Part shown: piece after piece, positions 11,359 to 15,393 of the stretch
How positions within the stretch are numbered: position 1 is the stretch's first letter
How the letters are laid out: each line of letters opens with the position of its first letter
Source: Candidatus Nomurabacteria bacterium
GTDB lineage: Bacteria > Patescibacteriota > Minisyncoccia > Phycocordibacterales > UBA9973
NCBI GenBank assembly: GCA_026395995.1
Contig: JAPLXQ010000010.1
Location: 146,400 to 210,399 of the forward strand
Reading direction: 5' to 3'
Length of the DNA stretch: 64,000 nucleotides
Position numbers and translations under genes: made by a program
Notes under the pieces: generated by a model
Database searches by the model: none
What the model was told of the DNA's origin: nothing
What the model saw: the letters and a program-made list of their open reading frames with translations, nothing else

Positions 11359-12606
11359 ATGAAAAAAACAAAAGTAAAAAAAGTAATAAAAAAACCAGCA
11401 AAAAAAGTTTCCAAACCTGTGAAAAAGGTGGTTAAAAAGGTTGCAAAAAAGATAGATAAAAAAACAAAAGTAGTTGTAAAAAAGGTTAAGAAAGAGGCTG
11501 TAAAAAAAGTTGCAGTCAAAAAATTAAATACAGGTGATAAAAAAGCTCAATTTTTAGATGCTAAAGCTACTGAGCTTATAGAAAAAGGACGCAAGCGTGG
11601 TTTTATTACTTATGATGAACTTTTGAAAACTTTTCCTGATATTGAAAATAACATTCTTTTCTTAGATGAGCTTTATGATAAATTTAATGTAGCCGGTATT
11701 GATGTTCTTGAAGGTGGAAATTTATTGGATCTTGATGCTTTAGAGAAAGATAAAGATTTGAATAAGTCTACAATGCATGATTCTATTCAAATGTATTTGA
11801 AAGAAATTGGTCAATACTCACTTATTTATGCTAGTGAAGAAAAAGATTTAGCGAAGAGAATTGAAAAGGGGGATGAAGAAGCAAAGAATTTACTGGCTCG
11901 TGCGAACCTTCGTCTTGTGGTTTCTATCGCTAAAAAATACGTAGGACGTAGTGCAGACCTTACTTTGCTTGATTTGATTCAAGAAGGAAATTTGGGTCTT
12001 TTTAAGGCTGTTGAAAAATTTGACTGGACTAAGGGTTATAAGTTTTCTACTTATGCGACTTGGTGGATTCGTCAATCTATCACTCGTGCTTTAGCTGATC
12101 AAAGTCGCACTATTCGTATTCCTGTGCACATGGTAGAAACAATTTCAAAATATAAACAAGTTCACCGTCGTCTTTCTCAAGACCTTGGACGTGAACCTCT
12201 TTCAGAAGAAATAGCTACAGAAATGGGGATTGATGTTGAAAAAGTTCATACAATTGAAAGTATTTCTCAAGAGACTATTTCCCTCGAGCAACCAGTCGGA
12301 GATGATGATGATAAATCAACACTCGAAAACTTCGTGGCTGATGATAAGATACTACGTCCTGATCAAGAATCTTCACGTCGTATCCTCGCTGATCAAATCA
12401 AAGAAGTTCTAGATGAACTTAATCCAAAGGAAAGAAAAATTCTTGAAATGCGTTATGGGCTGATGGATGGAATTCAGCATACTCTTGAGAGAGTAGGGGA
12501 AGAATTCGGTGTCACTCGTGAACGTATCCGTCAAATCGAAGCAAAAGTTCATGAAAAGCTACGACAGCATGAAAAAATCGCAAGACTTAAAAATTATTTT
12601 GATTAA
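11359..12606 (+). CDS. rpoD: RNA polymerase sigma-70 factor RpoD with a ~55-aa KK/AK/PV-rich, histone-H1-like N-terminal extension
   Basis: Regions 1.2-4 conserved ([35 protein letters not shown], region 4 [18 protein letters not shown]). Confidence 0.9.
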
Positions 12607-12612
12607 AACACA

Positions 12613-12691
12613 ACCCCTCCCGACCTCCCCTTATCAAGGGAGGAGGAAATGCTAAGCCTTTAATTCCCCCTGACAAGGGGGTTAGGGGGTT
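12613..12691. repeat. degenerate copy of the GC-rich compound palindromic element (intergenic, after rpoD)
   Basis: cccctcccgacctccccttatcaagggaggagg and ccccctgacaagggggttaggggg hairpins resemble the right arm of the uvrA/uvrB/uvrC copies. Confidence 0.5.
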
Positions 12692-12725
12692 GTATTATCC
12701 TTATTTTATAAGGGCTTTTTAGTGC

Positions 12726-12755
12726 TTGACAGAATGGTATTAAATATGCTATCAT
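12726..12755 (+). promoter_or_regulatory. sigma70-like promoter candidate (TTGACA, 18-nt spacer, TATCAT) upstream of the DGR target gene
   Basis: Hexamers read from the sequence, ~65 nt upstream of the ATG at 12820. Confidence 0.3.
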
Positions 12756-12819
12756 ATAAGTTGAAATAGTATAGTGCTATTTTATAACAGAATAATAAAC
12801 AAAAAAAAGATTACAGATC

Positions 12820-13536
12820 ATGAAAAATGAAACAAAATCTGACAGACTGAGCTTTGCACAGCTGGGTGTCCTTGCAGGAATCATTATGGAATTCCTTGCA
12901 GTAATGTTCAATGCTCCACAGCTAAAATATTGGCTTGAGCATAAAACGGAGTTAAAGAAAAGGCTTCGTGAAGTTTTTAAAATTGTAGATGAGTATGTCG
13001 ACATTCGTATAGAATGGGCTACTTTCTACAAAAAGAATTTTGACTGGGAAGTAGATTTCAGTCATGTAATAATTCCAACAATGCCGACTATTGGTAAATG
13101 GAGATTATTATTTATTCCGAAAGGAATGAGACCACAGCTTGCTTTTGAAGTTTGTACAAAGCTTTTTAAAACAAGTAAGTATTGTGATAACTTGGATGAT
13201 GCGATTGGTAAAAACATTCGTACAACAGGTGAACATTATGCTGTGTGGGTTCGTGACGAAGTTGAACCAGATTCAGAAACATTGGGCAAATCAACTCGCC
13301 AAGCGGATCCTGATATGAAAGTTGGAATCACATTGCTTGAAGGAATTATTTTTGAAATTAAGTATTTTACTGAAACCGGTAAACATCTTAATATTAAAGG
13401 AGTTACTTTTTGTAGCGGTTCTCGCATTTCTGGTGGCAATGTTCCGAGCGTGAGTTGGAGCGATGGCAAGTTCGAGGTGTACTGGAACGACTTGGACAAT
13501 TCGGTTTCGTATTATGGTATCCGTTCAGCAGTTTAA
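12820..13536 (+). CDS. DGR variable target protein (238 aa). The C-terminal ~40 aa is encoded by the VR; hydrophobic N-terminal segment; no other recognisable domain
   Basis: VR lies in-frame in the last 40 codons. C-terminus CSGSRISGGNVPSVSWSDGKFEVYWNDLDNSVSYYGIRSAV. Variable codons correspond to AAY/GAY/AAG codons in the TR. Confidence 0.8.
   Translation: MKNETKSDRLSFAQLGVLAGIIMEFLAVMFNAPQLKYWLEHKTELKKRLREVFKIVDEYVDIRIEWATFYKKNFDWEVDFSHVIIPTMPTIGKWRLLFIPKGMRPQLAFEVCTKLFKTSKYCDNLDDAIGKNIRTTGEHYAVWVRDEVEPDSETLGKSTRQADPDMKVGITLLEGIIFEIKYFTETGKHLNIKGVTFCSGSRISGGNVPSVSWSDGKFEVYWNDLDNSVSYYGIRSAV
13415..13534 (+). repeat. DGR variable repeat (VR), 120 bp
   Basis: Direct repeat of 13797-13916 with 13 mismatches, all at TR adenines. 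The 3' end (ggtatccgttcag) is conserved and may serve as the homing-initiation sequence. Confidence 0.85.
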
Positions 13537-13564
13537 TCTTTTATTTTTTTAACTTTTAACCTTA

Positions 13565-13600
13565 ATCAGTGTTTGCTATGCAAACACTGATTTTTTTATG
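13565..13600 (+). terminator. hairpin plus T7 30 nt downstream of VR (terminator and/or DGR target-recognition cruciform)
   Basis: atcagtgtttgc-tatg-caaacactgat then ttttttt. Confidence 0.5.
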
Positions 13601-13796
13601 CTAAAATATACTCGGCTGTTAAATTGATTTGGCTTCGGCTAGATAACAATTTGCCATATAAAGAAACTGCCTGCAATTAATAAAGCATAGATAATTCAGT
13701 TTTGTATTGATGCACCACATTGCTCGTTGTGAAGCGAGATAACTCAGAAAATTTGGAAACAGATTTTCGGTGAAATGGAATATTTATTGCGGTAGA

Positions 13797-13916
13797 GCGG
13801 TTCTCGCAATTCTGATGGCAATGTTCCGAACGTGAATTGGAACGATGACAAGTTCAAGGTGAACTGGAACAACTTGGACAATTCGAATTCGAATTATGGT
13901 ATCCGTTCAGAAGTTT
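13797..13916 (+). repeat. DGR template repeat (TR), 120 bp, same orientation as VR
   Basis: About 35 A residues, of which 13 differ in the VR (to G x8, T x4, C x1). In the VR reading frame the TR carries many AAC/AAT codons. Confidence 0.85.
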
Positions 13917-13917
13917 C

Positions 13918-14262
13918 TCATAACAATCCGCTCTGTTTGGGCGGATTTTGTGTTTGAGTATATTTGAGCCAGCCATTTATCATCTTTGAAATTTCTTGAA
14001 GTTTCAATTCTATTTGTAAATATATAGTTTCGGTAATTATTTTTAATTCATATTCTGTGCGGATAAGTTGTTTCAATGTTTCTGTTTGTAGCCTTGCTTG
14101 TTTAAGTAGAATAATTTTATCTACCTTTGATTCAAGTGATGCACTAATGAGCAACGAAAAACTTTTTAAAAATTCTTTTTCAATATAGTTATGTAGTCCA
14201 AGTTTGTCACGTTTCGGTAATTTATTTCCAATTAAATAAATATAAGCGTATAATTTACGCAT
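13918..14262 (-). CDS. avd: Avd-like accessory variability determinant (basic four-helix-bundle / 23S rRNA IVS protein family)
   Basis: YAYIYLIGNKLPKRDKLGLHNYIEKE fits the KFPKxxxYxL motif of this family; ~114 aa and basic. The ORF is also open back to an upstream ATG at 14322, which would overlap the RT start; the start at 14262 is preferred. Confidence 0.7.
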   Translation of the reverse strand: MRKLYAYIYLIGNKLPKRDKLGLHNYIEKEFLKSFSLLISASLESKVDKIILLKQARLQTETLKQLIRTEYELKIITETIYLQIELKLQEISKMINGWLKYTQTQNPPKQSGLL

Positions 14263-14265
14263 CTT

Positions 14266-15393
14266 ATGGACAACTGGAATATCAAAGTCGTTGGGGGGGG
14301 TGCTAATCAAAGTCTCCTTCATAATATCGTAAGTTTACCAAATTTACTGCAAGCATGGAAGGAATTTAAAAGGTGTAAAAATTCCAAAAAAGACATTGCT
14401 GAATTTGAATTTAATTTAGAAAATAATTTATTTTCCTTGTACAGTAATTTAATAAATAAAACATACATACCAGACCCATACCAAGCATTCTTTGTTTATG
14501 ATCCAAAACGACGACATATACACAAAGCTACAGTCAAAGATAGAGTTTTACATCAAGCTATTTTTAAGATTTTATATCCAATATTTGATAAGCATTTTAT
14601 TTATGATTCTTATTCATCACGCAAAGGAAAGGGAACTCATAAGGCGTCACAACAGCTTTTTATAGTATTAAGGAAAGAGAGCAAAAACTGGCGAGTGCCA
14701 GTTTTTGCTCTTAAGTGTGACATTAGAAAATTTTTTGATTCTGTAGATCACAACATTTTATTTGAGTTAATAAAAAAGAAAATAACAGATGAAGAAACTT
14801 TAACTTTAATTAAACAAATTTTAGATAGCTTTGAAGTTAAAAATAAAATGTTAACAAACTCAGCGATAGCAGAAAGTGTTAACATTTCAAGACGAGGTTT
14901 ACCTCTTGGTAATGTAACGAGCCAGCTTTTTGCAAATATCTACTTAAATGAATTAGATCAATTCGTGAAACATAACTTGAAAGTAAAAAGTTATTTTAGA
15001 TATGCAGATGATTTTGTGTTGCTTTCTAGAGATAGAAAAATTTTAGAAAACTACATATTAGAAATTCAGGATTTTTTAGATAAAAATTTAAAATTACAAT
15101 TACACCCAAATAAAATTTCAATAAGAAAAGTAACACAAGGGATTGATTTTGTGGGATATGTAATTTTACCTGATACAGTGGTATTAAGAACTAAAACAAA
15201 AAAGAGAATTTTTAAAAAGTTAAAAACTGTAAAAGACAAATTAGTTAACAAAAAATCAACTAAAGAAAACTTTAATCAAACTAAAACTTCCTATTTAGGA
15301 ATTCTTACTCATTGTAAAGATAAGGAAATTAAAAGAGGGATAAACAGAATTTTATTGCAATGCTTTATCAATTTTGCCAGTGACCATCAATAG
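14266..15393 (+). CDS. DGR reverse transcriptase
   Basis: RT motifs: PKRRHIHKATVKDRVLHQAI (1/2), ALKCDIRKFFDSVDH (3), motif 4 GLPLGNVTSQLFANIYL with the DGR-specific [ILV]GxxxSQ signature, YADDFVLL (5). The N-terminal region aligns with the Bordetella phage bRT pattern (...YDPKRR.I.KA...DRV.HQAI...IFD..FIYDSY..RKGKGTH.A). G8 homopolymer at 14293-14300. Confidence 0.9.
   Translation: MDNWNIKVVGGGANQSLLHNIVSLPNLLQAWKEFKRCKNSKKDIAEFEFNLENNLFSLYSNLINKTYIPDPYQAFFVYDPKRRHIHKATVKDRVLHQAIFKILYPIFDKHFIYDSYSSRKGKGTHKASQQLFIVLRKESKNWRVPVFALKCDIRKFFDSVDHNILFELIKKKITDEETLTLIKQILDSFEVKNKMLTNSAIAESVNISRRGLPLGNVTSQLFANIYLNELDQFVKHNLKVKSYFRYADDFVLLSRDRKILENYILEIQDFLDKNLKLQLHPNKISIRKVTQGIDFVGYVILPDTVVLRTKTKKRIFKKLKTVKDKLVNKKSTKENFNQTKTSYLGILTHCKDKEIKRGINRILLQCFINFASDHQ

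Follow-up and report, generated by a model that had tools for sequence, protein, structure and literature searches.

Our analysis indicates that the locus described here is a normal diversity-generating retroelement (DGR) of the Candidate Phyla Radiation (CPR) type in which a run of eight guanines (G8), located where the 5' ends of avd and of the reverse transcriptase (RT) gene overlap, probably serves as a slippage-prone phase-variation switch for Avd and RT together, a reading to which we give a probability of roughly 0.6 based on comparative sequence data. The locus is a complete, chromosomal DGR in a genome annotated at its source as Candidatus Nomurabacteria and is carried by a 287-kb contig; "the window" below denotes the whole 64-kb stretch of DNA that was analysed. 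All sequence features stated in an earlier, sequence-only reading of this DNA are present in the window, and the features relevant to our argument are the following.

12820..13536, plus strand: DGR target gene, an ORF of 238 aa with the VR at its C-terminus
13414..13534, plus strand: variable repeat (VR), 121 nt, with 89% identity to the TR
13564..13592, plus strand: terminator-like hairpin 3' of the target gene and VR, with a 13-bp stem and a T run
13796..13916, plus strand: template repeat (TR), oriented like the VR and the RT, ending 1 nt before the avd stop codon
13918..14322, minus strand: avd (accessory variability determinant), long form, 134 aa, with its ATG at 14322, reading through the C8 tract
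13925..13957, plus strand: terminator-like hairpin with a U-rich tail, directly 3' of the TR and inside the avd 3' end
14225..14254, plus strand: promoter-like TTTCCA-18-TATAAT (10/12 match), inside the avd coding sequence and ending 11 nt before the RT ATG
14260..14262, minus strand: internal avd ATG (Met21), giving a 114-aa short form, 3 nt from the RT ATG
14266..14322, both strands: overlap of the RT and long-form avd, 57 nt, head to head, in the same codon phase
14266..15393, plus strand: DGR RT, 375 aa, RVT_1 at 89.5 bits
14291..14293, plus strand: TTG that uses the first G of the tract, in the RT frame at G6, G9 and G12, a possible alternative RT start
14293..14300, both strands: G8 tract, read as C8 on the avd strand; conserved, a simple-sequence repeat (SSR) and putative switch

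The identification of the locus as a DGR is well founded, given that all 13 of the 13 mismatches between VR and TR fall at TR adenines, the minus-strand ORF belongs to the bAvd family, and the RT carries the DGR motif. DGR-clade RTs were recognized by an RVT_1 fold combined with the motif [I/L]GxxxSQ, which is found here within LPLGNVTSQ; the LGNVTSQ part is invariant in an alignment of 12 clade members, and CPR genomes and metagenomes contain relatives of the RT at 45-68% identity. NCBIfam holds no DGR-specific RT HMM, and the top match there was a group II RT, below its cut-off. The VR occupies the final 41 codons of the target ORF, whose protein product matched nothing in Pfam or NCBIfam, and homologous targets lie upstream of the TR in three related loci (L005, L009 and L011). 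How DGRs work in general is established, i.e., RT and the accessory protein Avd, a four-helix bundle, copy the template, adenines are mutagenized and the VR is replaced. At this locus, the TR would be transcribed from the plus strand, RT and Avd would copy the TR RNA into cDNA with misincorporation opposite adenines, and the cDNA would then take the place of the VR in the 3'-terminal part of the target gene. The VR/TR differences in the consensus may be taken as evidence of past retrohoming activity only.

Whether the minus-strand ORF is indeed Avd-like had been named beforehand as a point on which the sequence-only reading could fail, and the HMM comparison came out in its favor: the ORF scored 47.3 bits against Pfam bAvd PF22296 (cut-off 40; residues 18-121) and E=9.5e-14 against NCBIfam DivGenRetAVD (51.6 bits, under the equivalog cut-off of 80), with residues 16-120 aligned to profile positions 2-104. 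GenBank annotates the 114-aa short form in the window. The long form is likelier since both profiles begin at residues 16-18 and the Avd of SSR-less relatives starts just before a conserved D-I-P motif that the short form lacks, so that the upstream ATG at 14322, to which the earlier reading had noted the frame to be open, is the likelier true start. The N-terminal D-I-P-V-V-H motif is kept in relatives, and Met21 is replaced by I or V in the more distant ones.

The gene order had been described as unusual, and its particulars hold: avd lies on the minus strand between a TR and an RT on the plus strand, the ATG of its short form is 3 bp away from the RT ATG in head-to-head orientation, and its long form overlaps the RT 5' end (14266-14322). 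The arrangement is, however, a named one. According to the accessible part of Wu et al. 2018 (PMC5758913), Architecture B3, TR-(avd)-RT, accounts for 90% of CPR DGRs, and avd is likewise reversed directly upstream of the RT in 81 of the 94 related loci that we collected; the window, with its order of target/VR, TR, reversed avd and RT, is a member of this architecture. Roux et al. 2021 (PMC8144416), in the portion accessible to us, further describe DGR clade 2 as restricted to Patescibacteria. Where a repeat pair could be detected in relatives, the TR has the sense of the RT and mostly lies no more than ~30 nt from the avd stop. Within the overlap of the window, Met1 of the RT and Met1 of long Avd are each antisense to the other's His19 codon, and L005, L007 and L020 likewise carry the head-to-head overlap in frame.

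The sequence-only reading had also placed a hairpin immediately after the TR, which is present with a start 2 nt away from the position 13923 given there: it spans 13925-13947, with a 9-bp stem (AATCCGCTC...GGGCGGATT) followed by TTGTGTTTGA. An equivalent hairpin with a T tract was found in 38 of 51 related loci as opposed to 14 of 255 random windows, the stem sequences varying among loci, and it is probable that the hairpin forms the 3' end of the TR RNA. Were the promoter-like site at 14225..14254 to be used, the RT mRNA would be near-leaderless, but a scan of the region gave 6 promoter-like sites against 5.7 expected by shuffling, i.e., chance level, and promoter assignments are therefore weak. 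The conserved hairpin after the TR, together with the promoter-like site before the RT, suggests that TR and RT are separate transcripts, the TR RNA ending at the hairpin; consequently, the plus-strand TR-RT transcript carrying antisense avd that had been proposed earlier is probably unnecessary. A template RNA in the form of a short, independent transcript, as the hairpin suggests, matters for reconstituting or engineering compact DGRs. An Rfam search of 13300-14500 returned nothing meaningful (top match E=0.39, a Plasmodium sRNA).

The G8 tract itself, as noted before, encodes GGG in the RT (codons 10-12) and PP in Avd (codons 8-10 of the long form) within the avd/RT overlap. It is the sole G/C run of at least 7 nt in the 64-kb window, whose GC content is 33%, and away from the avd/RT junction only 3 such runs occur in 433 kb of related loci; its presence is far beyond chance. 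An interrupted, synonymous version of the run, GGAGGTGG, encodes the same amino acids. The earlier suspicion of a sequencing error or mis-assembled G run was not borne out, because an independent, run-level Logan assembly (SRR20698644) is 100% identical over 12354-14874, G8 included. Exact-protein look-ups with long Avd and the 375-aa RT found no other assemblies of the window's lineage; a look-up via the neighboring DsbA-like gene gave two short contigs that both stop inside the RT, and one via short Avd gave a single contig, identical to the window, the lineage being known from one project only.

At its length in the window, the tract leaves both RT and avd in frame. Simulated tracts of G5, G8 or G11 keep both genes ON, G7 and G10 truncate both, and G6, G9 and G12 truncate Avd while leaving the RT reachable only from the TTG at 14291. 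The proposed switch would build on this geometry: avd and RT are divergent with zero intergenic space, and each has its start codon across G8 from the bulk of its coding sequence, so that both N-terminal leaders, as frames and homology show, are translated across the tract. The gain or loss of one G would then shift both frames together and truncate the RT and full-length Avd after 12-30 codons, such that the tract could turn the whole mutagenesis machinery ON and OFF in a heritable and reversible manner. Under this model, G8 in the window would represent the ON state for both genes. It should be added that the TTG/GTG codons at the edge of the tract and, in the window's subclade, the Met21 short Avd blur ON/OFF calls, which weighs against the switch.

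The idea that G8 is a slippage or phase-variation site, first raised in the sequence-only reading, draws strong support from the comparison with relatives, in which the tract is conserved, its length varies and the frames vary with it. Of the 81 loci with reversed avd, 56 carry poly-G of 6-12 nt (modes 9-10) at the same junction position and 9 carry another simple repeat there, i.e., (GT)n, (GA)n, (CT)n or a 5-nt unit, (CGGAC)x9, with the remaining 16 having no repeat. It thus appears from these sequences that the property under selection is repeat-ness rather than sequence. The 56 poly-G lineages are distinct, in that no two share at least 85% identity over 300 nt, and near-identical pairs sought in the poly-G class among the 94 loci were not found. 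Based on stop-to-stop ORF mapping, both ATGs are in frame at 14 of 16 SSR-less loci vs. 13 of 56 poly-G loci (Fisher p=5e-6), the latter share being compatible with a random one-third. The strict criterion of conserved ATGs yields 7 loci ON/ON and 39 OFF/OFF, and in most OFF/OFF loci the same single-step change of the tract would restore both genes; when any canonical start is permitted, both genes have one in 22 of the 56 poly-G loci, and a TTG or GTG stands at the 5' edge of the tract in ~20 of the 56 (by-eye tally of flanks). A particularly close comparison pairs the tract-less, in-frame L007 with L008, a close relative that has G10: read as G9, L008 has the same N-terminal region, with only two residues differing (I/V, and S/GG at the tract). 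Past the tract, ORFs are uninterrupted (RT complete in 53/53, avd in 52/52), and adenine-specific VR/TR differences persist in loci with out-of-frame tracts.

Length polymorphism between otherwise identical contigs was seen in one lineage, P0017, in which contigs obtained from different samples and by different assemblers (SRR12676973, SRR7053532, ERZ27300010 and ERZ27300137) align over 2.1-3.3 kb with no mismatches and differ solely by G9 vs. G6. This sole polymorphism counts against the switch in that it is a 3-nt, in-frame change and not one of +/-1. In seven other lineages sampled 2-4 times, tract length, out-of-frame lengths included, was constant across contigs, which indicates that switching would be too slow for frequent change of the consensus. 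Taken as a whole, the tract has several attributes of a contingency locus, being uninterrupted, of a length that permits slippage and within the 5' coding region, with a conserved position, variable length, both frame states represented and ORFs otherwise intact.

Several of these observations have to be weighed under other explanations as well. A share of in-frame loci near one-third, which is an argument against the switch, is equally expected from transcriptional slippage or from no frame constraint at all. Under the former, RNA polymerase stuttering, or ribosome frameshifting, on the G/C run would provide a fixed, small in-frame fraction of product and hence act as a dosage throttle. If the DNA frame were unselected in this way, the 13/56 to 22/56 in-frame poly-G loci would be as expected; the clustering of tract lengths at 9-10, enough for polymerase slippage, would fit too, as would the out-of-frame lengths that are stable across samples in several lineages with intact ORFs, and a single site would serve both avd and RT given that these overlap. 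Nonetheless, we consider this explanation, the main rival to the switch, unlikely. The di- and pentanucleotide repeats found at the same site are classic substrates of DNA slippage and poor sites for transcriptional slippage, known cases of which favor A/T runs. Further, the G6/G9 polymorphism keeps the frame, suggesting selection on the DNA frame in the P0017 lineage at least, and a single programmed frameshift is at odds with the mixed shifts that would be needed, i.e., -1 in ~19 loci, +1 in ~14 and 0 in 7 (by-eye tally). Less probable still is that the tract is a regulatory or structural element, such as a Shine-Dalgarno (SD)-like site, a promoter spacer or a strong G:C clamp in a duplex of the two complementary mRNA 5' ends, with the true starts elsewhere and the frame across the tract of no consequence. 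The G run is conserved in position and strand, there is no intergenic room for regulatory sequences, and the flanking ATGs each lie opposite a conserved His codon, which alone might account for their conservation. Against this stand the replacement of the tract by unrelated repeats in 9 loci; the ~16-20 poly-G loci (by eye) in which neither side of the tract offers the RT a canonical in-frame start ahead of its conserved motif, and the many loci without an in-frame avd start; the use of these exact ATGs, in frame, by SSR-less relatives (14/16); and the Avd profiles, which begin upstream of Met21. Two specific roles were tried and rejected: for an SD function, an SD-like tetramer was seen at 1 of 39 long ORFs and other repeat types replace the run, while a promoter spacer containing the tract would, as read from the sequence, be 20-24 nt and too long for sigma-70 spacing.

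It could also be argued that G8 arose as an artefact of assembly or sequencing, or that such tracts are weak points of DGRs decaying to pseudogenes, since homopolymers are error-prone, three contigs (L037, L042 and L053) break at the tract, one G10 lineage (L116-L118) has an internally deleted RT, and most consensus sequences are out of frame. This explanation we regard as largely refuted and very improbable: G8 recurs identically in the independent assembly, the tract occupies the same position in 56 distinct lineages, the RT and avd ORFs are all uninterrupted beyond it, and the G6 and G9 alleles were each recovered by the same assembler type from different samples. In addition, at 33% GC, purifying selection would be expected to break a harmful run by means of synonymous GGA or GGT codons.

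We therefore favor the phase-variation switch in the window, and we rate at about even odds the broader proposal that most CPR DGRs carry a contingency switch of this kind, i.e., a hypermutable SSR (poly-G, or a GT, GA, CT or pentanucleotide repeat) in the overlapping 5' ends of avd and RT, through which replication slippage would set subpopulations ON or OFF, one tract gating two divergent genes. The regulation of DGRs is, to our knowledge, poorly understood. Adenine mutagenesis that goes unchecked comes at a cost to a functional protein, and a large number of DGRs in nature seem to be inactive at any one time. A tract that gates Avd and RT would offer a simple and testable answer for CPR/Patescibacteria, the largest natural reservoir of cellular DGRs: in the switch model, stochastic but heritable ON/OFF states would lead to diversification of the target protein in only a fraction of cells. 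If true, this would amount to second-order control of mutability in a mutagenic retroelement and would be the first mechanism described that regulates DGR activity genetically. We found no description of such a tract, or of phase variation, in connection with DGRs in the searchable literature, with an earlier mention, e.g., in Paul et al. 2017, not fully excluded; the accessible parts of Wu et al. (PMC5758913) and Roux et al. (PMC8144416) mention neither a repeat tract nor a post-TR hairpin. On the practical side, the N-termini of RT and Avd at such loci will be annotated wrongly by gene callers and DGR finders, or the genes taken for pseudogenes.

Compared to known systems, the window shows no architectural difference from CPR DGRs of Architecture B3, with which it has in common component order and orientation, host group, chromosomal site, a short C-terminal VR and adenine-specific VR/TR differences. 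The prototype, the DGR of Bordetella phage BPP-1 (mtd-avd-TR-brt), has the same parts, namely a target with a C-terminal VR, Avd, TR and RT, and presumably the same mutagenic retrohoming chemistry. However, avd, TR and brt are co-directional in BPP-1, whereas in the window avd is antisense, with its stop abutting the TR, and the starts of avd and RT overlap head to head across a repeat, unlike in BPP-1. Similarly, the DGR RNA of BPP-1 includes the spacer into brt, as opposed to the terminator-like hairpin after the TR here, and its TR-side IMH* is reported, in the accessible part of PMC5758913, to have no inverted repeat following it. With regard to the tract, the closest parallels are the poly-G/C SSR contingency loci of Campylobacter jejuni and Neisseria (e.g., PMC6321876, PMC5084427), where, as in the window, an uninterrupted G/C tract of at least 8 nt lies in the 5' coding part of a gene in an AT-rich genome. 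In those loci, too, tract length varies from one relative to the next, with some alleles in frame and others out of frame while the rest of the ORF is intact, but they mostly concern surface structures or restriction-modification, with one gene per tract. The window has instead one tract in two divergent, overlapping genes, and that tract would gate targeted hypermutation. In Haemophilus influenzae, the divergent fimbrial genes hifA and hifB are both controlled by one (TA)n repeat. That is, a single tract between divergent genes acts on both, as proposed here, with the difference that the hifA/hifB repeat changes the -35/-10 spacing of the overlapping promoters in which it lies and so works at the level of transcription, whereas the tract of the window is inside both coding leaders and would act on the translational frame. 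Finally, programmed transcriptional slippage sites such as those of IS elements and dnaX (Baranov et al. 2005, PMC1088944) share with the window a homopolymer in coding sequence and a change of frame, but they consist of A/T runs with a defined shift and a second product, as opposed to the G/C run, the mixed shifts across loci and the substitution by other repeats that characterize the DGRs studied here.

Positions 12820-15393 of the window hold a compact DGR with a full set of parts:

12820-13536, + strand: target gene (ORF, 238 aa), its 3' end being the VR
13414-13534, + strand: VR, 89% identical to the TR
13564-13592, + strand: terminator-like hairpin after the target gene (13-bp stem and T7, 28 nt past the VR)
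13796-13916, + strand: TR, with 13 differences from the VR
13918-14322, - strand: avd, Pfam bAvd 47.3 bits (cut-off 40)
13925-13947, + strand: terminator-like hairpin after the TR (9-bp stem including 5 G-C pairs; tail TTGTGTTTGA)
14266-15393, + strand: RT, RVT_1 with the motif LGNVTSQ

The sequence-only reading had called this locus a DGR with an Avd-like minus-strand ORF, and both calls stand, as do its coordinates (all right to within 2 nt): the VR/TR mismatches fall at TR adenines in 13 of 13 cases, the LGNVTSQ motif of the RT is invariant in the RT clade alignment, and the ORF, besides exceeding the bAvd cut-off, matches NCBIfam DivGenRetAVD (E=9.5e-14, 51.6 bits, under the equivalog cut-off of 80). 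GenBank labels the identical short Avd a four-helix-bundle protein, from a Candidatus Nomurabacteria MAG (287-kb contig). Since the surrounding ORFs are rpoC, dnaG and rpoD-like, the DGR is chromosomal. The Logan run-level assemblies of SRR20698644 and SRR20698641 are both broken within the RT gene, at 14858-14874 (contigs L014 and L015 begin at 14858 and L016 stops at 14874, all three 100% identical to the window); this break may reflect strain variation or a repeated k-mer.

We compared 94 loci: the window, 80 related loci from metagenomes and 13 from reference genomes, every one of these 13 belonging to CPR/Patescibacteria. avd lies on the strand opposite the RT and immediately upstream of it in 81 of them, the window included; of the remaining 13, ten are on contigs that stop before this can be judged, two lack avd and one, from Gracilibacteria, has avd co-directional with RT. 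Where a repeat pair is detectable in the relatives, the TR shares the sense of the RT and is mostly no farther than ~30 nt from the avd stop, with the VR some 400 nt upstream and the mismatches nearly all at TR adenines.

The G8 run at 14293-14300, in the avd/RT junction, is the sole G/C run of at least 7 in the 64-kb window (33% GC), and 56 of the 81 loci have a poly-G at the matching place, the Gs being on the RT-sense strand (one locus with 6 Gs, 4 with 7, 7 with 8, 17 with 9, 17 with 10, 8 with 11 and 2 with 12). Across 433 kb of related loci, 54 G/C runs of at least 7 lie at the junction, 5 further ones at the RT start in loci without detected avd, and only 3 elsewhere; no pair among the poly-G loci compared shares ≥85% identity over 300 nt. 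Nine loci without poly-G have another repeat type at the same spot: (GT)n in L038, L051, L055 and L057 ((GT)14 at 1657-1684 of L055), (GA)n in L088, L093 and L095 ((GA)12 at 2157-2180 of L095), (CT)12 in L010 (3900-3923), and nine copies of the 5-nt unit CGGAC in L002 (2263-2307). Where the repeat is of the GT type, the starts of both genes together make CATATG and the repeat is confined to the 5' coding part of avd, so that Avd alone would be gated there. Three metagenome contigs begin at or beside the poly-G (L037, 1-10; L042, 6-17; L053, 29-38), suggesting that assembly breaks are favoured at the tract, through heterogeneity or low read quality.

The RT and the long avd (134 aa, from ATG 14322) overlap symmetrically by 57 nt in the same codon phase, the RT Met1 codon (14266-14268) being antisense to that of Avd His19 and the long-Avd Met1 codon (14320-14322) antisense to that of RT His19. 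The upstream avd ATG, noted previously as an open alternative, is favoured by several features that indicate the long form to be the real Avd: both Avd HMMs start at long-form residues 16-18; the D-I-P-V-V-H motif, upstream of the Met21 that begins the 114-aa short form, is kept across relatives without Met21 being conserved (I or V in L001, L003, L004, L005 and L009); and the Avd of the repeat-less loci L070-L072 begins M-(N/D)-(D/E)-F-D-I-P. Repeat-less relatives, as read from their sequences, have head-to-head ATGs (3-6 nt apart in L070-L072, a 15-nt overlap in L056), and hence an intergenic promoter region is never present in this clade.

Window tract lengths of G5-G12 were simulated in silico, with the following outcome.

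Predicted reading frames by tract length in the window
G5, G8, G11: RT open from ATG 14266; long Avd open
G7, G10: RT stop after 21-22 codons; long Avd stop after 29-30 codons
G6, G9, G12: RT from its ATG stops after 12-14 codons, TTG 14291 in frame; long Avd stops after 12-14 codons

TTG 14291 includes the first G of the tract, and a TTG or GTG stands at the tract edge in ~20 of the 56 poly-G loci (by-eye tally); speculatively, therefore, two of the three phases may allow RT expression and a single phase that of full-length Avd. Of 39 long ORFs in the whole window, just 1 is preceded by an SD-like tetramer (within 20 nt of the first ATG); host translation initiation thus seems to proceed largely without SD, and a role of the tract in ribosome binding is improbable.

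Both ATGs are in frame in 14 of 16 repeat-less loci vs. 13 of 56 poly-G loci (Fisher p=5e-6), or, with any canonical start allowed, both genes in 14 of 16 vs. 22 of 56 (p=0.001), and the poly-G in-frame fraction does not depart significantly from one-third. Counted strictly, with the conserved ATGs on either side of the tract as the only starts, the 56 poly-G loci comprise 7 ON/ON, 39 OFF/OFF and 10 mixed, and one shared single-step length change rescues both genes in most OFF/OFF loci. L007 is in frame without any tract (TCTGGGAGTCGTGC) and reads MQDHNISIASGSRAQSVFHEV; L008, closely related to it and with G10, reads MQDHNVSIASGGGRAQSVFHEV when that run is taken as G9, the two differing only by I/V and by S vs. 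GG at the tract. Past the tract, all 53 complete RT ORFs (at least 314 codons) and all 52 avd ORFs (at least 107 codons) are open, and out-of-frame loci keep adenine-specific VR/TR differences; the out-of-frame loci are therefore not in decay. L116-L118 share avd and the G10 junction with L105-L107 and have an internally deleted RT, in which N-terminal FHNIVSLSNL runs straight into the C-terminal tail; here a decayed copy of the DGR occurs alongside the intact one, both from the same groundwater project.

Length variation between samples was seen for one Avd protein, P0017, found on 8 contigs from different samples and assemblers (NCBI, JGI, ENA with k141 contig names, and Logan). L097 and L099 (both G9) are identical across 3,327 nt, and L097 aligned with L098, L101 and L103 over 2.1-3.3 kb shows no substitution and a single 3-nt gap, G9 vs. 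G6; both lengths occur among the ENA k141 assemblies. Seven other lineages, sampled 2-4 times each, showed no length polymorphism among contigs, out-of-frame lengths included (G9 in four and in two contigs, G10 in three contigs in each of three lineages, G11 in two and in four), and consensus tract lengths are thus fairly stable. The P0017 contigs (L097-L104) are substitution-free over 2.1-3.3 kb across several samples, VR included, despite RT and Avd being in frame; the consensus sequences thus show no diversification of this DGR from sample to sample.

We favor, with a probability of about 0.6 for the whole statement, the hypothesis that this is a CPR-type B3 DGR (a part that is near certain) in which a slippage-prone repeat within the avd/RT overlap would switch both genes ON or OFF heritably. 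The sequence-only reading had proposed G8 as a plausible slippage or phase-variation site, and the conserved position, the substituting repeats, the mixed frames and the G9/G6 difference in P0017 all strengthen that proposal. Its other suggestion, sequencing error or mis-assembly, fails for G8, since the separate Logan assembly of SRR20698644 also gives G8, which rules out an assembly slip; with RT and avd ORFs unbroken past the tract (53/53 and 52/52), we regard artefact or DGR decay as highly improbable explanations of the tract. A sequence-specific regulatory element, with start codons elsewhere, is doubtful because unrelated repeats occupy the position in nine loci; their replacing one another at one position argues that selection acts on the instability of the repeat rather than on a binding motif or a Gly/Pro peptide. 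Expression of RT and Avd through transcriptional or ribosomal slippage at the tract is unlikely, and would be the alternative to the heritable switch that we take most seriously.

As to transcription, the stable hairpin previously placed right after the TR is present, 2 nt from its proposed start. A scan found 3 terminator-like sites vs. 0.7 expected, and 38 of 51 loci have a GC-rich hairpin with a T-rich tail at -10 to +80 nt relative to the end of the TR, vs. 14 of 255 random windows, with stem sequences varying from locus to locus. Read most simply, the TR RNA would be a short independent transcript ending at this hairpin, in which case RT would be expressed from a promoter of its own. A TTTCCA-18-TATAAT site stops 11 nt short of the RT ATG, although promoter-like sites in the region are no more frequent than by chance. 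Hence, the TR-RT co-transcript with antisense avd envisaged earlier is not required. The TR promoter and the 5' portion of the template RNA presumably lie in the ~200 nt non-coding spacer from target-gene terminator to TR (13593-13795), the VR-TR spacing of relatives being similar at 250-400 nt; a promoter scan of it returned no promoter-like site at the threshold used. The hairpin after the TR might in addition have a part in cDNA priming, a function of the spacer in the BPP-1 DGR, or in terminating avd. Some DGRs need a hairpin/cruciform element downstream of the VR, and the hairpin at 13564-13592 could double as such an element.

Neither the text considered of Wu et al. 2018 and of Roux et al. 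2021 nor the DGR literature searched for homopolymers, phase variation, SSRs, contingency or poly-G mentions a repeat tract conserved where avd and RT meet, the detailed CPR DGR literature being represented in part. The architecture, which had been headlined as unusual, is not, since the relatives show the same layout and TR-(avd)-RT is Architecture B3 of Wu et al. 2018 (PMC5758913), which accounts for 90% of CPR DGRs; Roux et al. 2021 (PMC8144416) describe one DGR clade confined to Patescibacteria. The avd orientation is thus already known, and the interest of this locus is in the tract, not in the direction of avd.
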